DNA of 64,000 bases. It comes from a virus. Below the pieces are notes generated by a model, which ran no database searches, was not told the DNA's origin, and worked only from the letters and a program-made list of their open reading frames with translations. Shown here one piece after another: positions 4,970 through 17,255 of this stretch (the first letter of the stretch is position 1; each line of letters begins with the position of its first letter). The position numbers and the translations under genes are program-made. The stretch lies in IMG/VR virus record IMGVR_UViG_3300046542_000074, positions 1-64,000 of that record. The stretch is one strand, 5' to 3'.

Positions 4970-5115
4970 GTCCAGAATTTATACTACTAGACATTTTCAG
5001 ATTTCATCATTTTGGATTTCATCTGAATTTTTCTCCCGTCATGACCATATACCCCTTTTCACTATACGCCTGTTTCCATTTTCAGGAAAACCGATCTGGT
5101 TAAAAATTGACCACC

Positions 5116-5213
5116 AATAGGCTGACGCTATCGGAACTGGTTGGTTCATAGAAAATCCCTATGTTATTAGGTACAAACTATCAGAACCATTTAGTCCATA
5201 GATTTTCTCAATG
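5116..5213. repeat. array of four 17-bp NATAG-N7-CTATN-type sites (two pairs, 50-bp repeat)
   Basis: aatag gctgacg ctatc; catag aaaatcc ctatg; attag gtacaaa ctatc; catag attttct caatg. Confidence 0.75.
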
Positions 5214-5423
5214 CTGGCAAGGCTAATTGAAAGCCTTCGCCCACTCTCCCGCCGACCCCTGTGGGCTGGCAATGACGTAATCCTACTGTAAAGCTTAGCA
5301 GACCGTCAACACTTATTTGAAAATAAATTTACAAGCAAGTTGTGTGCCAACTCCAAACGTCGCCCACCCTCCCGTCTTGTACTCCAGTGTCTGCGCTTTC
5401 GCGTTTCGTTCCTGCTATGTGTA

Positions 5424-5451
5424 ATTATAGTAAAGCCACAAACCAATACAA
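5424..5451 (-). promoter_or_regulatory. leftward early-type promoter with no downstream ORF
   Basis: Minus strand AAAATAATGC-TTGTAT-16-TATAAT. Confidence 0.55.
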
Positions 5452-5638
5452 GCATTATTTTCATATTTCTTTTCATCTAATTTGCTTGACAGATAGGCGA
5501 ACGCTGTGCTATTCGCGCACCCGGTTCATCTATATAAGGCACAAAACGATTGACGAAAATAATCTAAAATGAATGTTGACAGGCTAGCGCAATGCTGTAG
5601 ACTTACCCATATCGAAAGCAAACAACGGAATCACAGAC

Positions 5639-5824
5639 ATGAAAACCCTGACTTTGACAGACGCTCAACACGCTTTGATTGTTTCCATTTTGCAGGGTGA
5701 CATTCTGGAAACCGAACAAATGATTCACGACCATGATGCTGGTGTGTCAATGGTTTCAAAAGAAGAACTGCAAGAGTATCTTGCACAAGTTTACCAGATT
5801 CTCAAACTAGCAGATGAGGCTTGA
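5639..5824 (+). CDS. early hypothetical protein
   Basis: First gene after promoter 5576. Confidence 0.7.
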   Translation: MKTLTLTDAQHALIVSILQGDILETEQMIHDHDAGVSMVSKEELQEYLAQVYQILKLADEA

Positions 5825-5827
5825 ATC

Positions 5828-6157
5828 ATGGCAGTCTATTACGAATGGGATGTTGAAGAAGTAGCAGACGCAGACCAGACTAGTTGTGGTCAAAAGTTTG
5901 CAAAAGATGATATCATAGAACACTGGCACCAAAAATCATTCAAGGATTGTCTAGCATTCATTGCAGCTAATCCGCCAGCGGAAAACGTCCGTTATGACAT
6001 TGTTCTAGTCCGTGACGACGACGACAGGCGAGCATGGGCACACTCGGACGATGAAAACAAATTTGTCCTTCCTGCAATGTTCTGTGACGCAGAAGGTGTG
6101 GAATATAAGAAGGTTCCTCAAGTGTTCTTTAAAGAAGTTGAAAGAGCATTGAAATAA
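5828..6157 (+). CDS. early hypothetical protein
   Basis: GAGG SD; stop abuts the next promoter. Confidence 0.75.
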   Translation: MAVYYEWDVEEVADADQTSCGQKFAKDDIIEHWHQKSFKDCLAFIAANPPAENVRYDIVLVRDDDDRRAWAHSDDENKFVLPAMFCDAEGVEYKKVPQVFFKEVERALK

Positions 6158-6224
6158 AAGCTTGACGGCTCATTTTAATCCTGTAGAATGAGCCACACAA
6201 ACAACGAAACATAGGATTCTCTAA

Positions 6225-6581
6225 ATGAAAACTCTAGAACTTGCACACGCCGACACTTGCCTTTCTTGCTTCTGGTCTGGTCACCACTTGCCACACATTC
6301 AAATCCCTGTGTATAAAGGTATACACTTTTCAGTTGTTAAAGAGTTGTTACATGATGAATTGAATATGGGCGCTTTGATGGGCTCAAACGTTGGTGACGA
6401 TTGTTGGTCTAGTGGGGAAGAAGGTGACAAGTGGTACAAGAAGGCGCACGCCGCTATCAATCGCATTCAACCGGCGATAAAGGGTAAACGTCGAATGTTC
6501 GAAGACCTTGACAAAGTGTCTGAGGACGATGATAATTCGGAAACGGTTTACGCCTACTTTGTTTTCATTGATAAGGAATAA
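6225..6581 (+). CDS. early hypothetical protein
   Basis: Follows promoter 6162. Confidence 0.75.
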   Translation: MKTLELAHADTCLSCFWSGHHLPHIQIPVYKGIHFSVVKELLHDELNMGALMGSNVGDDCWSSGEEGDKWYKKAHAAINRIQPAIKGKRRMFEDLDKVSEDDDNSETVYAYFVFIDKE

Positions 6582-6585
6582 GAAC

Positions 6586-6735
6586 ATGTCTTTAGACCGT
6601 TTCGTTGAGTTGTATCTTGACTATCGCAATAACTTCCTAACTGTCGAAGCATTCGCAAGTTATTATGGGCTGTCGTTGTCTACAGCAACAAAGATTGTTG
6701 AGTGTGGTCGTACAATTAGCGCACTTGAAGAATAA
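6586..6735 (+). CDS. early small protein (YLDYRNNFLTVEAFASYYGLS, HTH-like)
   Basis: AAGGA SD, ATG at 6586. Confidence 0.7.
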   Translation: MSLDRFVELYLDYRNNFLTVEAFASYYGLSLSTATKIVECGRTISALEE

Positions 6736-6896
6736 AATAAATGTTGACAAGCCCATTCATTGCTGTAGAATGGGCCACACAAGAGAGGCAAAGGCTTGCA
6801 AGGCTAAATCAAAAGGTGGCATGTGACAGTGTAACCTAGCTGGCCTTTCGGGAATCGACGCCCGACTCTCTTACCCTAACTTTCGGAGTCTCACAA

Positions 6897-7187
6897 ATGC
6901 AAACTAATATGCAAGTCACTGAATTGAACAAACTCCCGGTCATCATCGACGGTGTTGGTATCTATATTCGCCGGGATGGTGGGCGAGTTAATATCACTGA
7001 AATTGTCCCCTACAAAGGCGAGCATGATCCTTTGACAGTGACGGCCTTTGAATGTAAAGGACAGCTTGAACGTTTGTTTCGTGGCATTCTGCGCTTTCGA
7101 GGGTTGGATAGTTGGCATGTCTCCGGGCGCAAGTTCCCGTTAAAGGAATCCTCTTTTGATATTGTGAGTAAAGAAGGCGACTCTTAA
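6897..7187 (+). CDS. early hypothetical protein
   Basis: GGAG SD. Confidence 0.7.
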   Translation: MQTNMQVTELNKLPVIIDGVGIYIRRDGGRVNITEIVPYKGEHDPLTVTAFECKGQLERLFRGILRFRGLDSWHVSGRKFPLKESSFDIVSKEGDS

Positions 7188-7489
7188 TGTGTCGTCTACA
7201 GAATCCCCATACACAAACGGTGCGTAGTGCCGTCTCAAACTGGCTTTATACAACACTCCACGACTGTTTCAGCCGTTCTATGCTTATACTTGAGCTAACC
7301 CCAAGGTTACAGGATTGCGCTGGTTTAGACCTGCCTAAATCAGTAGACAATGAGCTAATAAGGCGTTGCAAGATGGGCTTGCTTAGTTATACAATAGGCG
7401 AATCGAGGGGAGTAGGGGGCCAACCTCCTAGAATCTATCGGCAAAGGTTCAAAGCGGACGATTCAGAAAATACATTGAATACCGGTTGA
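7187..7489 (+). CDS. putative winged-helix protein, paralog of 10316-10576
   Basis: Shared VSxWL..LDLxK..NxLxRRxxxG..GxxPRxY pattern. Confidence 0.6.
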   Translation: MCRLQNPHTQTVRSAVSNWLYTTLHDCFSRSMLILELTPRLQDCAGLDLPKSVDNELIRRCKMGLLSYTIGESRGVGGQPPRIYRQRFKADDSENTLNTG

Positions 7490-7589
7490 CAGGCTACCCG
7501 ACACTGGCTACACTTTTAATCAATGACAGACGCAAGCGCTAAGGCTTTATAACGTAAAATTCTTAATTTCTCAATGAGGCTACAACATC

Positions 7590-7796
7590 ATGGCAATGAC
7601 TAAACGTGAATACAATGCACACAAAAAGGCGCTGATGAATACCGCCATGTGTATCACTGTCGAAAGCTTGCAAGCCAGTATCAAAGATGAGTTTGTGAAC
7701 CCTTCGCAACCATACCTAGTCTTTGACGCCATGATGAGCGCTTGCGAAAAGAAATTAGGCAAAAGAGAATTTCAAAAATGGCTTGCCACTCTCTGA
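7590..7796 (+). CDS. early hypothetical protein
   Basis: GAGG SD. Confidence 0.7.
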   Translation: MAMTKREYNAHKKALMNTAMCITVESLQASIKDEFVNPSQPYLVFDAMMSACEKKLGKREFQKWLATL

Positions 7797-8010
7797 AAAG
7801 TCTGTAGAATGGCGGACATAGGGAAGCGCGAAGCTTCCCATAGTTTGGAAGGAAAGCCTAAATGACACTTTATCTAGTTGTTGACCGTCAAACTGGCTTG
7901 CAAGTTGGCAAGCCTTATACCAGTAAATCCCGCGCCCGTAATCGTGTTGATAAGCTGGATAACGAATACGGCGCCTATCGTTACACTGTCCGTTCCCTTG
8001 AGGTGTCGCA

Positions 8011-8274
8011 ATGATCTCCTACACTTCACTGATGCACCCGACCATGATTGCCAAGATCCGGCAAGGTATTAAGTATGCCGCACTAGGTCAAGGGCATATG
8101 ATGAATGGGCATGATTCTCGTGTGTATATTCAAGACAGGCACGGGCGTAATATCATGCGCATTAATTGGTTGAAAGTGCCTGATGCCAATGGTAATAAAA
8201 TTATTGTGTACGGTGATAATTCGCGTATAATCACAGCTACTGTTATCAAGGCACTACAGGAATCGAACCAATGA
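8011..8274 (+). CDS. early hypothetical protein
   Basis: GAGGT SD. Confidence 0.7.
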   Translation: MISYTSLMHPTMIAKIRQGIKYAALGQGHMMNGHDSRVYIQDRHGRNIMRINWLKVPDANGNKIIVYGDNSRIITATVIKALQESNQ

Positions 8275-8546
8275 GCTGGAATCAAGCCTACTGCAAAGCT
8301 ATAGAGCACGCCAAAAGTGGCCAGCCTTGCAAGTTGTACCGCGAGGGTGGTTTGTGGATTGTCGAGCCAAATAAGTTAAAATAAAGTTTGACAGGCTACC
8401 AAACTAAGCCTAGAATTACCACAACAAGGCAAGGTGCCTGAATAACAAAAGGAGTGGCTACAATGAATATGTCCGACCTGCTATCAGTTTGCTTCGCGGC
8501 ATTCATTGTCGCCGGTATGCTCTCAATTTATCTGGATGATTGACAA

Positions 8547-8858
8547 ATGAAAGCTTCACAAATTCTTGAAATTGCCTTGAACACTAGATATAGTCCTGAT
8601 GAGTATATGTGCCACTGTATTACGGAGGTATGCGAAGACCTTAAAGGTAATGACGCAGCAGGACTATTTCTTGTTGACAAGATCGAAAAGATCCTAGACA
8701 CTGCTAACACAATCGTTTTGTGTAACTACCTAAAGCGCACTAGTAAGAAATACGCGGCCTTTGAAAAGCGTTGGGGCCATGATTCGAAAGCCTGCTATGA
8801 TATGCGTGTCGCATTCTGGCAGGATATGATCAACGAATTGAAGGTGTCTGGTCTGTAA
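8547..8858 (+). CDS. early hypothetical protein
   Basis: 103-aa ORF ending before promoter 8886. Confidence 0.7.
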   Translation: MKASQILEIALNTRYSPDEYMCHCITEVCEDLKGNDAAGLFLVDKIEKILDTANTIVLCNYLKRTSKKYAAFEKRWGHDSKACYDMRVAFWQDMINELKVSGL

Positions 8859-8958
8859 CGGTGTTAAAATAAACTAAAATAAAGCTTGACCACACCGACC
8901 AACACTGTAGAATGATCACATCGAAAGGCAGAAAGCCTTCACCAACGGAGATAAGAAC

Positions 8959-9255
8959 ATGGCTCGCAAAATTACAGAAGAAGCAATTCACGCTTTCATG
9001 GTTTATGTTAAACCTTTTCACAAAAGCAATATGAGTGTAATGATCGAAAAAGATGTTGTGATCTTACGCCTTCACGGTCATCAGATTGCACGTCGTGAAG
9101 TTGGTAGTAACACCATTGAAGTTACAAATGCTGGTTACTTCACCAACACCACTAAAGAACGTTTGAATGGTCTGCCCGGTGTGTCGATTCAACAGAAAAA
9201 GGGTGTTTGGTTCCTGAATGGTGTTGAGTGGTCTGGTGAATGGACTAAAGTTTAA
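8959..9255 (+). CDS. early phage protein (TTKERLNGL motif)
   Basis: Own promoter, GGAG SD. Confidence 0.75.
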   Translation: MARKITEEAIHAFMVYVKPFHKSNMSVMIEKDVVILRLHGHQIARREVGSNTIEVTNAGYFTNTTKERLNGLPGVSIQQKKGVWFLNGVEWSGEWTKV

Positions 9256-9564
9256 CTAAAATAAAAGCTTGACGCCTTTTCTAGAAAGTGTAGAATAGGC
9301 GTTACAAACAACGAACAAGGTGACACAACAATGAATCTGATTCCTTATTGCTTTAACTACAAAGGTCACACCATTTATGAAGATGGGCGCGTTTATCGTA
9401 ATTATGAGTTGATTGGTACATATAAAACCGTTGCAGCGGCAAAGGCAGCGGCAACAAGAAATGCTAAAAAGATTTACAATTAAGACTTGACCGATAAACT
9501 AATTGCTGTAGAATAAACCACACAAGAGGCGAACAAGCCTCACAAACCAAAGGAAATAAAGATC

Positions 9565-9900
9565 ATGACTTACAAGACCCGCGAAGAAGCTTTCTGTGTT
9601 GACAATGTAACAACCTTTCAAGGTTATGACGTTCATAATGGTGAAGTGACACTATCTGAGGATGAGTACAAAGAAATTCTAAACGAAATGTATGGCGAAG
9701 TGACAGTGTGTGGTCAAACCTTCCAACAAGGTGATTTGCTAGAAGACGCTGACCCGACAGCTTTCCGGTGTGGAAAGAATGATTATGAAAGCGCGTTGCA
9801 AACTGAACTCGAAACTCAATTAGACCGTGAGGATGATTCGCAAATCGAGTTTGAAATTGACCCGGACGACATTGAAGAAGACGAGAGCGACGACGAATAA
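9565..9900 (+). CDS. highly acidic early protein (candidate DNA mimic)
   Basis: About 35 D/E vs 6 K/R in 111 aa; own promoter. Confidence 0.75.
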   Translation: MTYKTREEAFCVDNVTTFQGYDVHNGEVTLSEDEYKEILNEMYGEVTVCGQTFQQGDLLEDADPTAFRCGKNDYESALQTELETQLDREDDSQIEFEIDPDDIEEDESDDE

Positions 9901-9989
9901 GGAATTTTATAGTTTAGCCTGTTGACACTGACAGGCTAAGCCGGTAAGATTCTTTTCACTGAAACATAAACTAAATCAGGAATATTCAA

Positions 9990-10313
9990 ATGGCCACTAT
10001 GTCCGACGTTGCAAAGAAAGTTGTAGCTGACTCGATTGACATGGATTATGTGAAAGAGTGCGGACACACCACAGTATCAGAAGTTTATAAAGCTGAGTTC
10101 GGCTGGCGTGGGCTTACCCCACAAGCGTGCAAGGATTACTTGCAAGGGTTGCCAAGTGTTTGCTCTGTTCCATTCTGGAATAATGAGATTCTTGAAATAC
10201 TGGCGAAGGATGGTATCACACGCAAAACAGATAAGGCGCAGTCTACCCTTATCGATCAATATTGGATAGCTTGTGGTTGCGAACTGTACAAGATCATCAA
10301 GCGCGGGGGTTAA
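9990..10313 (+). CDS. early hypothetical protein
   Basis: Own promoter 9922. Confidence 0.75.
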   Translation: MATMSDVAKKVVADSIDMDYVKECGHTTVSEVYKAEFGWRGLTPQACKDYLQGLPSVCSVPFWNNEILEILAKDGITRKTDKAQSTLIDQYWIACGCELYKIIKRGG

Positions 10314-10315
10314 GT

Positions 10316-10576
10316 ATGGCTAGACCACCAAACAAGGAGACCAACGTAATACGCGAGCTTGTATCAGGTTGGCTATCACGAACAACACTCAAGAGCTTTA
10401 CAGTTCCTACGCTGTTACACGAGCTTGATTCGTTGCTGAGTATATACAAGTGTCTTGACCTGAGTAAATGCCTCTCTAACGACTTGATGCGCCGTGAGCG
10501 CGCAGGGATGCTCAAGTCTGAGCTAGGCGAGCCTGTAGGCGTTGGGCGTCCTCCTAGAGTCTATAGCCGGCTTTGA
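10316..10576 (+). CDS. putative winged-helix protein, paralog of 7187-7489
   Basis: MARPPNK N-terminus, GVGRPPRVY wing motif. Confidence 0.65.
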   Translation: MARPPNKETNVIRELVSGWLSRTTLKSFTVPTLLHELDSLLSIYKCLDLSKCLSNDLMRRERAGMLKSELGEPVGVGRPPRVYSRL

Positions 10577-10668
10577 AATAAACTAAAATAGTTGTTGACG
10601 GTGTGAATCAATGCTGTAGAATGGGCGTCAAGAAGGGAGAAACAGATTCTCCCAAAGGAGATACGAAT

Positions 10669-10875
10669 ATGACCACATTGACTCTTGAACTGGAAAACGG
10701 CAAATCCACTAACGTTATCGTTGGTGCCAAAACAGCGCCGAACATTCGTGAAGCGTTGTTGACAGCGTGCAAGTGCCTTGGTTACAATGGGGTAACAAGT
10801 GGCTACTGTGACGCCTCTACACTGTATCAAAACGGTGTGGTTAAGCTCAAAGGTGCAAAGGCTTACATTAGCTGA
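10669..10875 (+). CDS. early hypothetical protein
   Basis: AAGGAG SD, ATG at 10669. Confidence 0.7.
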   Translation: MTTLTLELENGKSTNVIVGAKTAPNIREALLTACKCLGYNGVTSGYCDASTLYQNGVVKLKGAKAYIS

Positions 10876-11101
10876 CACCATACGACAAAAGCCCCTTAAA
10901 TGGGGCTGAGTCAGTAGAAGACAACCAACTTTATAGGTGTTATCATGTTAACCAAAGAACAACAAGAAGCCATGCGATTGCTAGAAGAAGCAATTAAAGA
11001 AGCAACAAACACAGGATTATTTGACAAACTAGCAGAAGAACACGAAACGAACGCTAATACAATCAACCGCTTTTGTGACTTGATCCAAGGGGTTTAATAA
11101 A

Positions 11102-11353
11102 ATGTCAGTCTTCGCAACTATCGCTGTAGTGTGTACCCTTGCAACTTGCAGTGATTACGTTATCGACACGGCTCAAACAGTGACAGATGCGAACATAAAT
11201 ACACATGTTCAAGATGAGCGGTTTCTGTCGCTTTGGGGCGATGAAAAGTTGTTGACAGACTGGCTAGACGAATTTAAGATTGGTGAAACGGTTTTCGAGA
11301 TCGTTTCCCTTGAATTTGAAACTAAAGAAATAACTGAGGATGATGCGCCGTGA
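11102..11353 (+). CDS. early protein with hydrophobic N-terminus
   Basis: MSVFATIAVVCTLATC, acidic remainder. Confidence 0.65.
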   Translation: MSVFATIAVVCTLATCSDYVIDTAQTVTDANINTHVQDERFLSLWGDEKLLTDWLDEFKIGETVFEIVSLEFETKEITEDDAP

Positions 11354-11607
11354 CTAGTATGAATGACAACCCTATTCACCAGCATGATTGCGAACGGTGT
11401 GTTTTCCTTGGTAGCTTTAACGGTGAGGACTTGTATTACTGCCCGACCTATGATAAATCCTTTCCGAAGGGTTGGACATTGATTAGTCGTTTCGGCATAC
11501 ATGGCGATTATTGTTCCGGTGGTTGGAAAACGGGACACCCTCAAATGCTTGAAGCGCGCCGACGTGCTGTAGAGCGCGGGTTTATTAAGTTTGACGAATA
11601 CACTTAA
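11350..11607 (+). CDS. early Cys/His protein (HDCERC, DLYYC)
   Basis: Overlapping GTG start. Confidence 0.7.
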   Translation: MTSMNDNPIHQHDCERCVFLGSFNGEDLYYCPTYDKSFPKGWTLISRFGIHGDYCSGGWKTGHPQMLEARRRAVERGFIKFDEYT

Positions 11608-11617
11608 AGGTGACGAC

Positions 11618-11830
11618 ATGAAAACCCTACACTTGACCGATGAACAACACGAAGCTTTAACAACCCTGCTAACTGGCGGATGCACTGGTAGCGCTTTGAT
11701 TAAGCTTGGTTTGGTTGACTTGCAAAAGTTTCTCCGGTGTCAATATGCTGATGTTTACAAGACCAGTGAAGACACCCGACCAGACTTGAAACGACTAAGC
11801 GACTACGGCTGTTACAACACTGTTAAATAA
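11618..11830 (+). CDS. early hypothetical protein; N-terminus similar to 5639-5824
   Basis: MKTLHLTDEQH vs MKTLTLTDAQH. Confidence 0.65.
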   Translation: MKTLHLTDEQHEALTTLLTGGCTGSALIKLGLVDLQKFLRCQYADVYKTSEDTRPDLKRLSDYGCYNTVK

Positions 11831-11848
11831 GTCTGAAAAGAGTACACC

Positions 11849-11870
11849 GCCCCGCTTGACGGGGCTTTTT
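11849..11870 (+). terminator. intrinsic terminator overlapping a -35 box
   Basis: gccccg-cttga-cggggc-ttttt. Confidence 0.75.
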
Positions 11871-12205
11871 CATGTCTGTAGAATCGTGTTCATGGTGATC
11901 GTTATCACTCAGGTGTTAGGTTTAGCACGAGACAAACAGGGAGGGTGGTCGTCATTCCTGAGTGGTTATTAAAACCAATTTCATTATTCCAAAATAGATG
12001 TAGACATGGATATTCATTCCTGTACAATGAACCCATCGAAACAAACAACAGGGAACACGGACATGACTATTCAACACGCTGTAAAGCAAGCCCGCTCTTG
12101 GAATCAATCAATGGTTCTAGCTATTCGGCTCGGTGGTCTTCCTGCAACTGTCTTGGCTATGCGTAGTCGTCGTAACTACTACATGAACATTGCAAGGGGT
12201 TGATC

Positions 12206-12562
12206 ATGAAAAAGAATATCTGGAAATTCACCAGCGAAGAAAAGAAAGCAATCCGCGCCTTCGCATTGAAAGCTACTGGTCTAGGTCGTGTGAGTTTGCA
12301 ACCCGGTCAGCGTGTGTCTACCGTCAATCATGATTTACCTAAATCTGTCAACGGTTTATTGGTTGATGATATGGAACAAAGCAAGTCAGACCTATGGAGT
12401 CAAGAAGATTGGGCAACCACTTGCAAAGGTGTGGAACTGACGACCGATGGTCAGGCATTGATTGACATTTACGTCTATAGTGTGGGTGAAGACGGACAAC
12501 TTGAAACGAATATCGGTGTTTATTATGCCGATGGAAAGATTCAAAGAATCTTCAATAATTGA
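12206..12562 (+). CDS. early hypothetical protein
   Basis: About 118-aa ORF. Confidence 0.7.
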
Positions 12563-12648
12563 AAAATAGTTGTTGACCTGTTTTCTAGATACTGTAGAAT
12601 GACAGACATAGGGAAGCAAAACAGCTTCCCAAAACCAAAGGTGACAGC

Positions 12649-13116
12649 ATGAACGTAATGGCCGAAGCTCACAAACGCACTAAAGCATTCATCGCTAAAG
12701 GTAGTTGCTTGATGACTTATGCCGCTGTATTACGTGTAACCTTGCGTCACTGTCATAGTGAGAACAAAGCCATGCAACTGACTAAAGATCAAGAGAAAGC
12801 CCTCGCAATTAAACATTTTGAAGATGCCATTGCTGGCACTCTGGAACACTTCGAAAAACTCGGCGTAAACGACTACTACATTGCAGTTGAGAATAATGCT
12901 CAATTGAACGACTACACAATTCTGGCTCACAAGGTGGTCGGTGACACTAGTTCGGCGTTGGGTTGGTCGAACTATACTGGTGCGTTGATCACCAACGGCA
13001 AACAAGCTGACGAATATGTCAAGTCATATCCGGGTGTTATCAAGCTTCACGCTCAAACCTACTTATCTAAAGTGTTGGACTCTTTCCGCGACAATCTGGA
13101 AAAGATCCAAAAATAA
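12649..13116 (+). CDS. early hypothetical protein
   Basis: Own promoter 12573. Confidence 0.75.
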   Translation: MNVMAEAHKRTKAFIAKGSCLMTYAAVLRVTLRHCHSENKAMQLTKDQEKALAIKHFEDAIAGTLEHFEKLGVNDYYIAVENNAQLNDYTILAHKVVGDTSSALGWSNYTGALITNGKQADEYVKSYPGVIKLHAQTYLSKVLDSFRDNLEKIQK

Positions 13117-13191
13117 ACTAAAATAAGTGTTGTACAAGGGGCATTGCTGGTGATAGAATGCTCCTACACCAACACGAAAGAGGCTTTCAAA

Positions 13192-13379
13192 ATGGCTAAG
13201 CGTAGAATCCACACTTACAACAACAACGGAAAACAGCCAAGGTTTATCGCAATGCCGAGTTTGATGAATATGAGGTGCGTTTCTCGGTGTTTGGTGAAGA
13301 CCTTCCCGATGCCGATTATTTCACCAACGATAAGCAAGATGCAATAGAAACCGCCAATCGTTGGATCAACGAAGAATAA
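13192..13379 (+). pseudogene. early gene split by a -1 frameshift at A4 (13230-13233)
   Basis: MAKRRIHTYNNNGK continues in the -1 frame as TAKVYRNAEFDEYEVRF...DYFTNDKQDAIETANRWINEE*, ending at the next promoter. Confidence 0.55.
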
Positions 13380-13455
13380 TCTAAAATAAATGTTGTAAGG
13401 AGTATTGGTAGTCTGTACAATACTCCCATACCCAAACGAAACGGAGTTTTCTAAA

Positions 13456-13650
13456 ATGTTGAACATTCTGACTAAATCGGTTTATGTCCTCCTTACCATC
13501 TTGACCATCATTGTTGTTATTCCCGGTTTCGTCACTGTTGTCGGTTTCGCATTTGCTGTAATTTCCAATAGTGTGTTTGGTGTTGATAATTCTGAAATTG
13601 TTATCAAGGTTGTTAATTACATTTGGCGCTTGTATGGTATCATCCAATAA
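13456..13650 (+). CDS. small membrane protein
   Basis: Long hydrophobic stretch; own promoter. Confidence 0.65.
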   Translation: MLNILTKSVYVLLTILTIIVVIPGFVTVVGFAFAVISNSVFGVDNSEIVIKVVNYIWRLYGIIQ

Positions 13651-13691
13651 GTTATAATCACCACACAGACAACGTAAGAGAGTTTTCTAAA

Positions 13692-13904
13692 ATGCGTACA
13701 TTCCAAGTAATCTTTCTGGTGATCCTATCCTTTGTATTGGTTGGTGTGTATGCGCCAATTGTTGCCGACCATTACAAATCTGTATCGTCAAAAGCAATGG
13801 CTGCTAAGTATGAAGCTGACAAAAAACAACGTTTGATCGAAGCTTGTGCAACTGGTAAAACTTCGCATATCATGTACAATGGCAAAGTTTGCAAAGGGAA
13901 CTAA
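13692..13904 (+). CDS. small membrane-anchored protein
   Basis: N-terminal TM; leader GAGTTTTCTAAAATG shared with 13456. Confidence 0.65.
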   Translation: MRTFQVIFLVILSFVLVGVYAPIVADHYKSVSSKAMAAKYEADKKQRLIEACATGKTSHIMYNGKVCKGN

Positions 13905-13909
13905 CCACC

Positions 13910-14281
13910 ATGTCCTACAAAGACCTTGAAGCCGAAATTAAAGCATGGGCAAACCTTGAAGCCTACGCGAAGAAACAAAAGGAAGACACCGAAGAAGCAC
14001 GCCGCAAAGCTAAACGTGACAAGCGTGCAAAGAAACAAGGTAAAGGCGTGCTAGTGGCTAAACGTCCGGCTCCTACACTGGCAAAGCCTATCAAGACGTT
14101 TAAGGATGTTACGCTTGAAGTGCGGCCTATTCACCATCGCAAATGGGGTGATATTGAGCAAGTGACGTATACAGTCGAAACTATGTCTGATACAGTGGCA
14201 GAAGTGGAAGCCATTAAGCAAGCAAGGCTAGACGGTTACAGCTTTGATTGTGTGGTAACTATCAAAACAACCGAGGAATAA
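13910..14281 (+). CDS. early basic hypothetical protein
   Basis: K/R-rich central segment. Confidence 0.7.
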   Translation: MSYKDLEAEIKAWANLEAYAKKQKEDTEEARRKAKRDKRAKKQGKGVLVAKRPAPTLAKPIKTFKDVTLEVRPIHHRKWGDIEQVTYTVETMSDTVAEVEAIKQARLDGYSFDCVVTIKTTEE

Positions 14282-14283
14282 TC

Positions 14284-14454
14284 ATGGGAACTAAAAACGT
14301 ATATGTAGTGATCCCGCGCGCTGTAAATGCTGAGACTAGATACTCAGTTCACAACAAGTCAGAAGCTAAAGGGAAACAGTTTGTTGCTCAGTTTGTGCGA
14401 CAGGCTGATGCATATGATTTTATTGATATGCTTGAGGCTAAAGAACGAAAATGA
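14284..14454 (+). CDS. early hypothetical protein
   Basis: GAGG SD. Confidence 0.6.
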   Translation: MGTKNVYVVIPRAVNAETRYSVHNKSEAKGKQFVAQFVRQADAYDFIDMLEAKERK

Positions 14455-14633
14455 GTAAGCATTGGATACTGACCCGCGACCTGATGCAAACCATCATAAC
14501 CAACCTAGACACCAATCGAATGACACTCAAGGCTGCAAAGCTTTATTATCTGGCGTATGGTGTTGAGGTGAAAGGGAGATCAAAAGAGCAATTCATTCGG
14601 AACCTTTGCAAACTAGTAGATCAAGCCCCTTGA
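14451..14633 (+). CDS. early hypothetical protein
   Basis: ATGA overlap. Confidence 0.6.
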   Translation: MSKHWILTRDLMQTIITNLDTNRMTLKAAKLYYLAYGVEVKGRSKEQFIRNLCKLVDQAP

Positions 14634-14648
14634 ATGGGGCTTTTCTTT
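14623..14648 (+). terminator. intrinsic terminator
   Basis: agcccc-ttgaat-ggggct-tttcttt, identical core to 16242. Confidence 0.8.
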
Positions 14649-14956
14649 GTCTAAAATAAATGTAGACACTGATATAAATTCTTTGCTATAGTACAAATAC
14701 CGGTGAGGATCGGAGGCAATCACCGAAGCTGCCTGAGATTTAACGTTGGCACGTTATTTTCCCACAACAAATGCAAATGTTGGCATGAAAAGTGGCACGC
14801 TGTTTTAAACTAAAAGACATAGCAGTGTGAAGCTAGAATTTATCGTTGCTGTAATCGCGTTATAGAGCCTTACAGAGCATTGAAAATAATTGTTGTATCG
14901 TTGATTGTTTATTGATAGAATACCCTCACGGAAACGAACTAACAAAGGTGTTTATC

Positions 14957-15352
14957 ATGTCGCACGTATTCACAGAAGCCGGTCTAGGTCAAGCCCCATT
15001 CAAAGTTGTCGGTTTCACTGAAAAGAGCACAGGTTGCGCCTTTTGTGGTCGTGCAATTCAAAAGGTTTGCATTGTCAAGAGTGCTGATGGTATCCGCTCT
15101 AACATTGGTTGCGATTGTGTCAAGAAGACCGGCGACAAAGGTTTGATAGCTGGTGAAAAGGTAGCAATTAGCAATTTCAAACGTGCGGCAAAAGTCAAGA
15201 TTCAAATGGATAAATACTTTGATGTAATGGTTGCAAAGTGGGGCGAGCATGAATACCTTGATCCCACTATTGACAAGAGCGATAAAGAAGCCTTCTTGAA
15301 AGACATGGAACGTTTGATGAAAGAAGTGGTGAATGAGTCGAATCAGTATTAA
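14957..15352 (+). CDS. putative Zn-binding early protein
   Basis: CAFCGRAI ... IGCDCV. Confidence 0.7.
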   Translation: MSHVFTEAGLGQAPFKVVGFTEKSTGCAFCGRAIQKVCIVKSADGIRSNIGCDCVKKTGDKGLIAGEKVAISNFKRAAKVKIQMDKYFDVMVAKWGEHEYLDPTIDKSDKEAFLKDMERLMKEVVNESNQY

Positions 15353-15683
15353 TAAACTAAAATAGGTGTTGTACTGGTGAGTAATCACTGGTACAATGCT
15401 TTCACACCAAGCCGAAAGGCTTAACCCTCCTGATAACGAGCAAAGAAAATGACTTCAGTTAACGAAAATCACGAACTAATCAAACAAGCTTGTGACAAGG
15501 TAATGAAAGATGCCGACGAATATGGCTATGATTGTGACTTGAACGCCTTTCATCTGCAATTGATGCTTGACGTTTTGTCAACAAGGGTATGTCGCCTAAT
15601 GAAATTGTCAGTGAAATGAAAGCGGGTGGCGATACTAACGCAGCTTTCTGGTTTGTGATTAATCGTTAATTGAGGGTTGACAA

Positions 15684-15962
15684 ATGAAACACACTCAAGC
15701 CGAACTAAACAAAGCTTTTGAAGAAGGCAAGCAAGCGGCTCTTGCTGGTTCAAAGCGCACACTAGCCAACCCATACACGAACTGGGAACTTTACACAGCC
15801 TTTAATAATGGATGGAAAGAAGGCTTGACACTGGCCAGTAATGAGCGCCTAATCGTTGCCCTCAAACGTGCGTTTAGTGTGGCAAAGAATGAGTCAACCC
15901 TTGACTTTGAAGAGATTCAATTGATCGAACAACACATTGAAAAGCTGGAGCATGGGGAATAA
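15684..15962 (+). CDS. early hypothetical protein
   Basis: GAGG SD; NPY...GW motif. Confidence 0.7.
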   Translation: MKHTQAELNKAFEEGKQAALAGSKRTLANPYTNWELYTAFNNGWKEGLTLASNERLIVALKRAFSVAKNESTLDFEEIQLIEQHIEKLEHGE

Positions 15963-15964
15963 TC

Positions 15965-16219
15965 ATGGGAAAGACAATCAATATAACAACTTTGTCAAGC
16001 ACTCTTGACCTAGCAGAATGCACCGATGGCTTTTGGTTGTATGATAAGACCCGAGGCATGAATCTATCAATGCGTGCCAAGTCTGAACAGGCGGCATTTG
16101 TAGAAGCCTTGACCTATTATCAAGATCGTTTGTCAAGGGTAGAACGTGAATTAAAGGACTTGACTTCTAAGGTTGATGTATTCGTTTCTCAATTCACAGA
16201 TAACGAAGACGATGATTAA
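15965..16219 (+). CDS. early hypothetical protein
   Basis: Last gene before terminator. Confidence 0.7.
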   Translation: MGKTINITTLSSTLDLAECTDGFWLYDKTRGMNLSMRAKSEQAAFVEALTYYQDRLSRVERELKDLTSKVDVFVSQFTDNEDDD

Positions 16220-16241
16220 TTAGTTGACATTCACTGAAAAC

Positions 16242-16267
16242 AGCCCCTTGAATGGGGCTTTCTTTTG
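16242..16267 (+). terminator. intrinsic terminator ending the early block
   Basis: agcccc-ttgaat-ggggct-tttctttt. Confidence 0.85.
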
Positions 16268-16269
16268 CC

Positions 16270-17255
16270 TGAAATTTGACCGATTGACATAGTACTATAT
16301 TCAGTGCCATGCACTGGACAATATACGCTCTTGATCTTGATCGATCAAAAGACCACCACTAGGCTAACGCCTAGCACAAAACAAATAAAAAGAAAACAAC
16401 ACAATACAAAGCCTTTGCTTTGCTCTTGCCCTTTCTTCACATGGAACATGTGGAACAATTAACCACTTGAAAACAAGCCTCATATCAGGCACTTGTGCCT
16501 AGCCATACCCTATCCTGTACCCTGTACAGAACCCATCCTATTCAGTGCCATGCACTGTCCTATGCCCTCATATTCGTTTATGCAATAAACATCTAAGCCT
16601 TTAGTTTATTGGCTTTGCCAATGAGATACGCTCTTAATTCCTGAGCATCGCTCAGAATATCATTCTATTCTGTGATACTATACTTTTCCCCTTTGCGCAG
16701 TATACCGGAGGGATGCTAAGCAACTATCTCTAACTATCCCATATAATGGGATGAATGTTTATCGAATCTGAATAGATTCAAACTATTAATACCCTATCTT
16801 CGATAGGAAATATCAATTAGCATCTGCATTGCAGATAATGTACTATCTATGTCATAGGTGAAGTATCCGCTCCAATTCGGAGCGAGAATATTTATTTGAC
16901 AAACTCATCTATCTCTGATTCGCACCCTATATACAGGGTAGTGCGCACTTCGCATATTGGCTATTATGTTAAATCGATAGCCTAACTCACATCCCCATTC
17001 CAATGTCAAGCATTAACTCTCATTGAATCTCTCAATGGATAACCGATTCCTAATAGATAGATATCCCCTATCGGATTTCAGGATCTAATAGAGTGGGTCT
17101 ATCGGCCAGAGGCAGGGGCGTCAAGCCCTATTCCTGAGTAGCAGCATATATTGCCCAATATATGGGATTCTTGAGGTACACGGATTTCCAAGTAACTGAA
17201 ATCCAAGTTTGTAAAATTCGGGGAATTGGAATTTCCGGGGATTCAGTTTTCTACA
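16270..17255. other. about 1 kb non-coding region rich in palindromes and repeats (candidate genome end, packaging or injection signal)
   Basis: TATTCAGTGCCATGCACTG x2, ATACGCTCTT x2, many short IRs, NATAG-N7-CTATN sites; lies between convergent terminators. Confidence 0.6.

Follow-up and report, generated by a model that had tools for sequence, protein, structure and literature searches.

PeSL-type promoter hairpin cassettes with promoter-specific, covarying arms in the early region of a Pseudomonas phage related to phiPMW

Introduction

Promoter-early stem-loop (PeSL) cassettes were described in the T4-like phages RB49 and phi1 (Arbiol et al. 2010, PMC2839356) and are found also in PST/T4 and nt-1/KVP40 (Comeau et al. 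2014, PMC4122927). Each consists of an AT-rich tract carrying the stop codon of the upstream gene, a sigma70 promoter, a Shine–Dalgarno (SD) sequence and a small open reading frame (ORF) of unknown function, and its stem-loop lies between the -35 hexamer and the -10 hexamer or overlaps the -10; G-T pairs are marked in the stems in the published figure (PMC2839356). The stem-loop of RB49 PeSL211/210 lowered the expression of a downstream lacZ like a strong terminator (PMC2839356). The cassettes mediate gene shuffling (PMC2839356, PMC4122927) and their stems are more variable in PST (PMC4122927). Here we analyse hairpins embedded in the early promoters of another phage, within the first 64 kb of the 101,375-bp contig IMGVR_UViG_3300046542_000074. 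This stretch (positions 1 to 64,000, the strand presented being +) is referred to as the window. We conclude that its hairpin cassettes are of PeSL type, that the phage group is new for such cassettes, and that their arms are specific to each promoter and covary.

Other described hairpins resemble them in part. Intercistronic stabilisers include the REP-type and puf-type 3' barriers and the 3' hairpins that RNase III leaves in the early mRNA of T7. The early promoters of phage N4 have stems of 5–7 bp with 3-nt loops, which act on the template strand with a virion RNA polymerase of roughly 3500 amino acids (aa), and the Frpo hairpin of the F plasmid restores duplex -35 and -10 boxes.

Results

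Early promoters pair with themselves beyond chance

Between 5.5 and 16.3 kb the window carries a + strand block of small ORFs with a strong sigma70-type promoter ahead of each. A cassette runs from an A-rich UP-like tract, AAATAAACTAAAATAAA, which holds the stop codon (TAA) of the upstream gene, through a -35 box TTGACN, a spacer of 16–17 nt, a -10 box TAGAAT or TACAAT and a CA-rich leader to the SD and a small ORF. An earlier, sequence-only reading of this DNA had listed nine inverted repeats pairing the spacer with the -10/+1 region, and all nine arm pairs are present exactly where it placed them (Table 1). Each left arm lies in or just 3' of the -35 hexamer, and each right arm spans the discriminator and the 3' portion of the -10.

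For the statistics, 19 promoters were picked by their hexamers and A-rich upstream tract alone, blind to pairing. The minimum free energy (MFE) of the region from the -35 to 10 nt past the -10 was compared with 1000 shuffles that left the hexamers untouched and permuted nothing but the spacer and the 10 nt following the -10. At p < 0.01 six promoters fold better than their shuffles; at p < 0.05 the number is eight (Fisher combined p = 2.5e-8). Seven of the nine hairpins first proposed pass (6162, 6744, 9269, 12573, 13131, 13393 and 15369), whilst those of promoters 7783 and 12001 are individually not significant. A second control joined the left half of one promoter to the right half of another, giving 342 chimeras. 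Perfect stems of at least 6 bp occur in 6 of the 19 native promoters against 4.7% of the chimeras, and stems of at least 8 bp in 3 of the 19 against 0.6%. Since the chimeras lose the pairing, the complementarity is private to each promoter and is not a by-product of the shared hexamers. The promoter hairpins are real.

They are found in about 40–50% of the early promoters. Where this hairpin is missing, another part of the cassette often bears a stem-loop, and there are four such cases among the 19: in the spacer (8388, a different position class), around the -35 (9922), as a terminator lying over the -35 (11856) and as a terminator upstream (14663). The stem of promoter 9922 has a counterpart with 91% identity in the Otagovirus phage PHB09. 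At promoter 10595 it is the -35 itself that pairs with the start region; this pairing is not significant alone and recurs in phiPMW at 7286 and in phage ventosus.

Table 1 Positions of the array, promoter hairpins and terminators in the window. MFE is that of the region from the -35 to 10 nt past the -10; p values are from 1000 shuffles
Feature	Position	Strand	Pairing	MFE (kcal/mol)	p
Early-gene array	5576..15396	+	~17 tandem cassettes
Hairpin, promoter 6162	6167-6174/6187-6194	+	GGCTCATT/AATGAGCC; extends to 11 bp with one G.U; -35 6162-6167, -10 6184-6189	-14.9	0.001
Hairpin, promoter 6744	6751-6758/6768-6775	+	GCCCATTC/GAATGGGC; 8 bp, perfect	-12.6	0.001
Weak hairpin, promoter 7783	7785-7792/7806-7813	+	GCCACTCT/AGAATGGC; one C.A mismatch		0.07
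Stem, promoter 8388	8393..8411	+	AGGCT/AGCCT; 5 bp, entirely within spacer		0.009
Hairpin, promoter 9269	9271-9282/9292-9303	+	ACGCCT-T-TTCTA/TAGAA-T-AGGCGT; 11 pairs and a T.T mismatch	-16.2	0.001
Stem, promoter 9922	9912..9941	+	GTTTAGCCTGTT/GACAGGCTAAGC; 12 bp, -35 hexamer at apex; -17.7
Pairing, promoter 10595	10595..10631	+	-35 TTGACG with start-region CGTCAA; 25-nt loop		0.27
Canonical intrinsic terminator	11849..11865	+	GCCCCG...CGGGGC then TTTTT; overlaps -35 of promoter 11856
Weak hairpin, promoter 12001	12013-12018/12026-12031	+	TTCATT/AATGAA		0.18
Hairpin, promoter 12573	12578-12587/12595-12605	+	CTGT-T-TTCTA/TAGAA-TG-ACAG		0.048
Hairpin, promoter 13131	13137-13145/13157-13165	+	AGGGGCATT/AATGCTCCT; 9 bp, one G.U	-14.1	0.013
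Hairpin, promoter 13393	13399-13407/13418-13426	+	GGAGTATTG/CAATACTCC; 9 bp, perfect	-12.4	0.009
Canonical terminator	14623..14642	+	directly upstream of the AT-rich tract of promoter 14663
Hairpin, promoter 15369	15369-15380/15385-15396	+	-35 TTGTAC... with -10 ...GTACAA; 12 bp, two G.U, 4-nt loop	-15.0	0.002

The hairpins precede the start site and pair as + strand RNA

A strand-symmetric stem finder applied to 25 hairpin-bearing promoters from nine phages gave the general anatomy. Relative to the end of the -35, the left arm begins at between -5 and +9 nt; the right arm mostly ends 3–6 nt past the -10, and the loops span 4–25 nt (mostly 7–13). With a start site expected 6–8 nt after the -10, both arms are predicted to lie 5' of +1. 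The hairpin would therefore be absent from the promoter's own mRNA and present only in + strand RNA reading through from upstream. The variable register and loop length fit a requirement for any hairpin in this place and not a fixed contact with RNA polymerase.

The strand is indicated by the internal mismatches. Ten are G.T on the + strand, one is A.C and one is of another kind; when shared ancestry is allowed for, about eight independent wobbles stand against one. This bears out the earlier proposal that G-T mismatches favour a structure formed by the + strand, and its suggestion of a helix in + strand read-through RNA gains from four observations: the G.T bias, the compensatory changes in 12 phages described below, the position of the arms before +1 and the variable register and loop. 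Taken together, the variation of sequence, register and loop, the restriction of wobbles to the + strand and the compensatory change speak for a generic helix of + strand RNA rather than for a protein site. As to other candidates, a dyad-symmetric protein operator was rejected, as the arms differ in every cassette, and so was a hairpin that masks translation in the manner of T4 e/soc, the SD being 25–40 nt downstream and outside the stem.

The same reading had allowed for cruciforms or for single-stranded promoter hairpins of the N4 or Frpo kind. Such a structure would modulate initiation or serve another polymerase. The repeats do overlap the -10 and discriminator, which are melted in the open complex, and the loop at 15369 is short at 4 nt. 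However, loops are mostly 7–13 nt, a size unfavourable for cruciform extrusion, the register with respect to the -35 and -10 varies, and what is a wobble on the non-template strand is a C.A mismatch on the template. The inverted repeat inside the promoter is a likeness to N4 and Frpo, but the loops of up to 25 nt and the full sigma70 consensus with UP elements set these promoters apart from N4-type hairpin promoters. The longest frame in the genome has 1832 aa and encodes the tail-tip protein, and the next, of 1157 aa, encodes the tape-measure protein, so that an N4-type virion RNA polymerase is absent. Comparison with Frpo/ssi-type elements is equally negative: the partner of the -10 is the spacer, the -35 lies outside the stem in most cassettes, and pairing of spacer with -10 cannot restore duplex boxes as Frpo does. 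These options are not supported, and we regard a structure acting at the DNA level as very unlikely.

Downstream of the stem there is at most one T in 8 nt for eight of the nine hairpins, as the sequence-only reading had remarked, and a terminator scan of both strands flags none of the nine. The stems are of terminator strength, at -12 to -16 kcal/mol compared with -12.5 to -17.7 for the phage's own terminators, and like them they directly follow a stop codon; cassettes 11856 and 14663 use a true terminator at this place. The promoter hairpins nevertheless differ from intrinsic terminators, which pair a G+C-rich stem with a U-rich tract within 0–2 nt. Read on the minus strand, the UP tract becomes a U-rich sequence, TTTATTTTAGTTTATTT, which would follow the stem, so that the hairpins could end antisense transcripts. 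The T-run lies 3–5 nt past the stem where the -35 is part of it (9269, 10595 and 15369), and a minus-oriented terminator-like hairpin does exist within the block (10890-10907). In most cassettes, however, the gap between stem and T-run is 8–11 nt, the minus-strand scan flags none of the promoter hairpins, and the + strand wobbles become C.A mismatches, as at 15369, where the stem weakens to -9.5 on the minus strand from -15.0 on the +. Antisense termination seems to us scarcely probable.

The helix is conserved and covaries in related phages

The best DNA matches of the phage are to the Pseudomonas phages phiPMW (Plaisancevirus) and vB_PpS_SYP (SYP), in patches only, and many Otagovirus phages of P. 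syringae have short, cassette-sized matches to the window. A megablast search of 50,697 phage records for relatives close enough for pairwise promoter comparison returned only patches of 50–60 bp, and a protein-seeded locus search in IMG/VR gave no matches. When IMG/VR was scanned for exact occurrences of the UP/-35 motif, 17 single hits came up, probably by chance, and a search of 5000-17000 against Rfam found no family.

Relatives were scanned by the same hairpin-blind promoter criteria. In phiPMW (locus L001) the promoter at 7286 has a 15-bp stem (-19.3), and those at 13000 and 13538 fold at -18.2 and -14.3; the hairpin of promoter 3865 in the Otagovirus Psxphi15 (L021) has -15.7. The same architecture is found in SYP, UNO-G1W1, PE09, Y1-MI, ventosus and UAVern.

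Counterparts of promoter 13131, which stands ahead of the 'MAKRR' gene, occur in 12 phages from at least three groups. The orthologues were cut from arm to arm and then aligned, whole-promoter alignment with MAFFT having misregistered the left arms. In the resulting 10-pair helix 90.8% of the cells are paired, against 37–53% when the partners are slid by 1–3 columns. Three pairs are altered on both sides (A-U/G-C, G-C/C-G and C-G/G-C) and one goes through G-C, G.U and A-U. The third base of the -10 covaries with its spacer partner, TAGAAT standing opposite C and TACAAT opposite G. The covariation score over these 12 distinct sequences, a small set, is 0.214 compared with 0.137 for shuffled alignments, 1 of 500 shuffles being as high. 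Covariation between promoters had been proposed from the window alone, and these orthologues supply the compensatory changes. Similar behaviour is seen at the promoter of the 'MNVM' gene (12573 in the window), where the outer arms CTGT...ACAG are replaced by GGGT...ACCC in phiPMW (GGGTATTCT/AGAATACCC). The hairpin is also open to loss: PE09 carries CGGCC...GGCCG, and phiPsa267 keeps the right arm but differs on the left side.

These results bear on the explanation that the inverted repeats are without function, being chance or quasi-palindromes made by template-switch mutation that hitch-hike on recombining cassettes. It could account for the hairpin's presence in only about half of the promoters, for the two of the nine proposed hairpins that fall within the chance range and for the retention of the promoter in phiPsa267 after its hairpin was lost. 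It does not sit well with the combined p value and the chimera control, with a helix kept in 12 phages of at least three groups through pair changes on both sides, or with the mismatches, for a strand-neutral mutational process would not be expected to give 10:1 of G.T over A.C. We think it quite unlikely that the repeats lack a function.

Two recurrent motifs were seen alongside the hairpins. TCTAGA followed after 5–6 nt by TAGAAT is a spacer sub-motif in promoters of four phages (window 9275-9296 and 12579-12600; 8426, 12869, 14317 and 18153 in locus L020; 3865 in Psxphi15); here TTCTA pairs with the TAGAA of the -10 to give an inner stem that is conserved, and the outer arms built onto it vary. 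The start-region motif TAGAATGGGCGTCAAGAA (10617-10634) is conserved across phages, and its CGTCAA complements a -35 TTGACG. Motifs of this type also occur in phiPMW at 7301-7325 and 9470-9495 and in locus L029 at about 280-295. At phiPMW 7286 the spacer lengthens the CGTCAA/TTGACG pairing to the 15-bp stem.

The cassettes compare with PeSL in layout but not in stem sequence

The window shares with PeSL cassettes the sigma70 -35 and -10 boxes behind an AT-rich tract with the upstream stop codon, a stem-loop on or next to the promoter (individually beyond shuffles in eight window promoters), an SD and a small, mostly unknown ORF, the clustering of cassettes in a plastic early region and their presence at insertion, deletion or replacement junctions between related phages. 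G-T pairs in the stems and a CA-rich leader are further likenesses. PeSL stem-loops may also overlap the -35 or lie in the AT-rich tract upstream, and these position classes are matched in the window by pairing of spacer with -10/discriminator, by stems in the spacer only, and by stems around the -35 or upstream.

The differences concern the host phage and the stem. The window phage encodes a large terminase, a lambda-type tape-measure protein and a tail-tip J protein and is for this reason a siphovirus. It is thus a lambda-tail-type phage of Pseudomonas, kin of phiPMW and Plaisancevirus, and not T4-like; related cassettes occur in Otagovirus myoviruses, which are not T4-like either. In RB49 the cassettes share one conserved stem, GGGGATC...GATCCCC, lying entirely inside the spacer with nothing but the -10 after it, and because it is one sequence RB49 chimeras fold as well as the native promoters. 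In the window the arms are unique to each cassette, the right arm is made of -10 and discriminator sequence, and chimeras fail to fold. The window has no conserved stem type of its own comparable to G(n)-loop-C(n) in RB49/phi1 and A3-4G3-loop-C3T3-4 in nt-1. Because stems are more variable in PST (PMC4122927), we take a conserved stem sequence to be a feature of subtypes and not of the class. In the literature searched PeSL appears by name only for T4-like phages and in a few passing mentions, and neither the ONT-cappable-seq survey of Pseudomonas phages nor the phiPMW genome paper mentions promoter-embedded hairpins.

The leaders themselves invite comparison. Those at 6190-6215, 12032-12055 and 13427-13445 contain ACACACAUC/ACAAACAACGAAAC before the SD, and leaders of RB49 (L032, locus positions about 10295, 9882 and 4410) are very similar. 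Judged by their sequences, this may be a convergent or a shared design of leader or translation enhancer.

Cassettes lie at rearrangement junctions

Two junctions between phages carry promoter cassettes at an insertion, deletion or replacement. In PHB09 a gene A is followed by a 9922-type promoter and a gene B, where the window has the order A-P9269-X-P9487-B-P9922-Y. PE09 (L025 285-440) and phiPsa267 (L023 245-400) have an identical stretch that begins in the spacer loop (TTCCTGTAGAATGGCCG...) and runs through the leader, and they differ upstream, in the -35 and left arm, and downstream, where another first gene follows. As the homology breaks in the spacer loop, the recombination joint is inside the promoter, which is like reports for RB49 mini-circles. 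The number of such events is small because there is no close genome pair among the relatives.

Other features of the block and contig

The cassette ORFs encode 50–155 aa, and their homologues are all annotated as hypothetical and distributed patchily among phages. Three promoters are followed, up to the next promoter or gene, by 115–200 nt without a convincing ORF (6772-6896, 11885-12000 and 14693-14892), which may be long structured leaders or small RNAs. After the stop of the gene at 10669-10875 there is a strong hairpin, AGCCCCTTAAATGGGGCT, at 10890-10907 (-16.0) with a T-run on the minus strand only; it is conserved in phiPMW and SYP and, within an all-plus gene block, is either a terminator-like element of minus orientation or a 3' hairpin that is U-less. 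The contig ends are identical over 127 bp (1-127 and 101249-101375), which is most simply explained as overlap in the assembly of a genome that is terminally redundant or was assembled as a circle; the assembly contains no terminal repeat of 12 kb.

Discussion

The evidence above points to an early promoter, strong and of sigma70 type, whose free positions double as an RNA stem-loop. These positions would be the spacer's first half, the discriminator and that part of the -10, AAT or TAGAA, which the spacer complements. There are no other free bases between the stop codon of the UP tract and +1, and for that reason an early spacer would have to pair with the discriminator and complement part of the -10. 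The hairpin would form solely in + strand RNA arriving from one or more upstream promoters and, standing at the end of the upstream cistron, would act as an intercistronic insulator. It could partly attenuate read-through, or leave after cleavage a 3' stem that blocks exonucleases, or both, so that the expression of each one-gene unit would depend chiefly on its own promoter. Those parts of the cassette that are conserved may at the same time provide recombination joints by which early genes are added, deleted and re-ordered. We favour this account of a read-through-only RNA hairpin insulating one-gene units, by partial attenuation and/or as a barrier to 3' exonucleases, in cassettes that double as joints, and put its probability at roughly 0.55.

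Formation of the hairpin in RNA is suggested by wobbles and compensatory changes. A function as attenuator or stabiliser is proposed by analogy with the RB49 reporter experiment, and in that respect the sequence of PeSL211/210 is instructive, since its spacer hairpin is followed only by TATACT, without a U-run. The window hairpins also resemble intercistronic stabilisers in being U-less, in lying between the cistrons of a polycistronic RNA and in having a sequence that is free so long as it pairs; those elements, however, are not superimposed on a promoter.

The same + strand RNA evidence would serve equally for an endonuclease processing signal, an RNase E determinant or a minimal RNase III-like site, at which read-through early RNA is cut into single-gene messages without any attenuation. 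An A/U-rich single-stranded tract, AAAUAAACUAAAAUAAA, stands directly 5' of the stem in nearly every cassette, and such a tract is the preferred context of RNase E. On the other hand the stems of 8–12 bp are too short for classical RNase III substrates, which are of ~20 bp, and no conserved cleavage motif is found within them. Processing in place of attenuation appears to us unlikely. True RNase III sites were rejected because of the short stems.

Several observations weigh against the insulator account that we prefer. About five of the 19 promoters (1647, 5576, 8886, 9487 and 14893) have no stem-loop, and in the phiPsa267 lineage the hairpin was lost and the promoter retained, which makes the hairpin dispensable. 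Classical intrinsic termination is unlikely given stems without a U-tract, and the phage uses canonical terminators where its blocks end (4942, 11849, 14623 and 16242 in the terminator scan). Overall folding energies show no difference between the + and - strands, so it is the mismatch types, with their roughly eight independent wobbles, that carry the strand argument. Relatedness among the 12 sequences of the covariation set can in addition inflate the shuffle control.

A further possibility, which we raise tentatively and consider doubtful, is that the hairpin is a built-in mark of transcript origin. The phage would attenuate, cleave or stabilise read-through RNA selectively, gene by gene, and promoter elements would co-evolve with RNA structure, as at the third base of the -10 and the spacer base with which it covaries. 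If true, this would apply as a design rule to tandem promoter arrays in general and would go beyond the proposals of the PeSL papers.

The results extend promoter-plus-stem-loop cassettes from T4-like coliphages to unrelated Pseudomonas phages, namely phiPMW-type siphoviruses and Otagovirus myoviruses. To the original PeSL descriptions they add statistical and comparative evidence of selection on the stem as a + strand RNA helix, in the form of compensatory changes, a wobble bias and the loss of folding in chimeras, together with a geometry that predicts the structure only in read-through RNA. The hairpins may also offer compact, sequence-diverse insulator parts for synthetic biology in Pseudomonas. 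For the phages themselves, the finding bears on how dozens of tandem strong promoters are kept from piling transcription onto the genes downstream.

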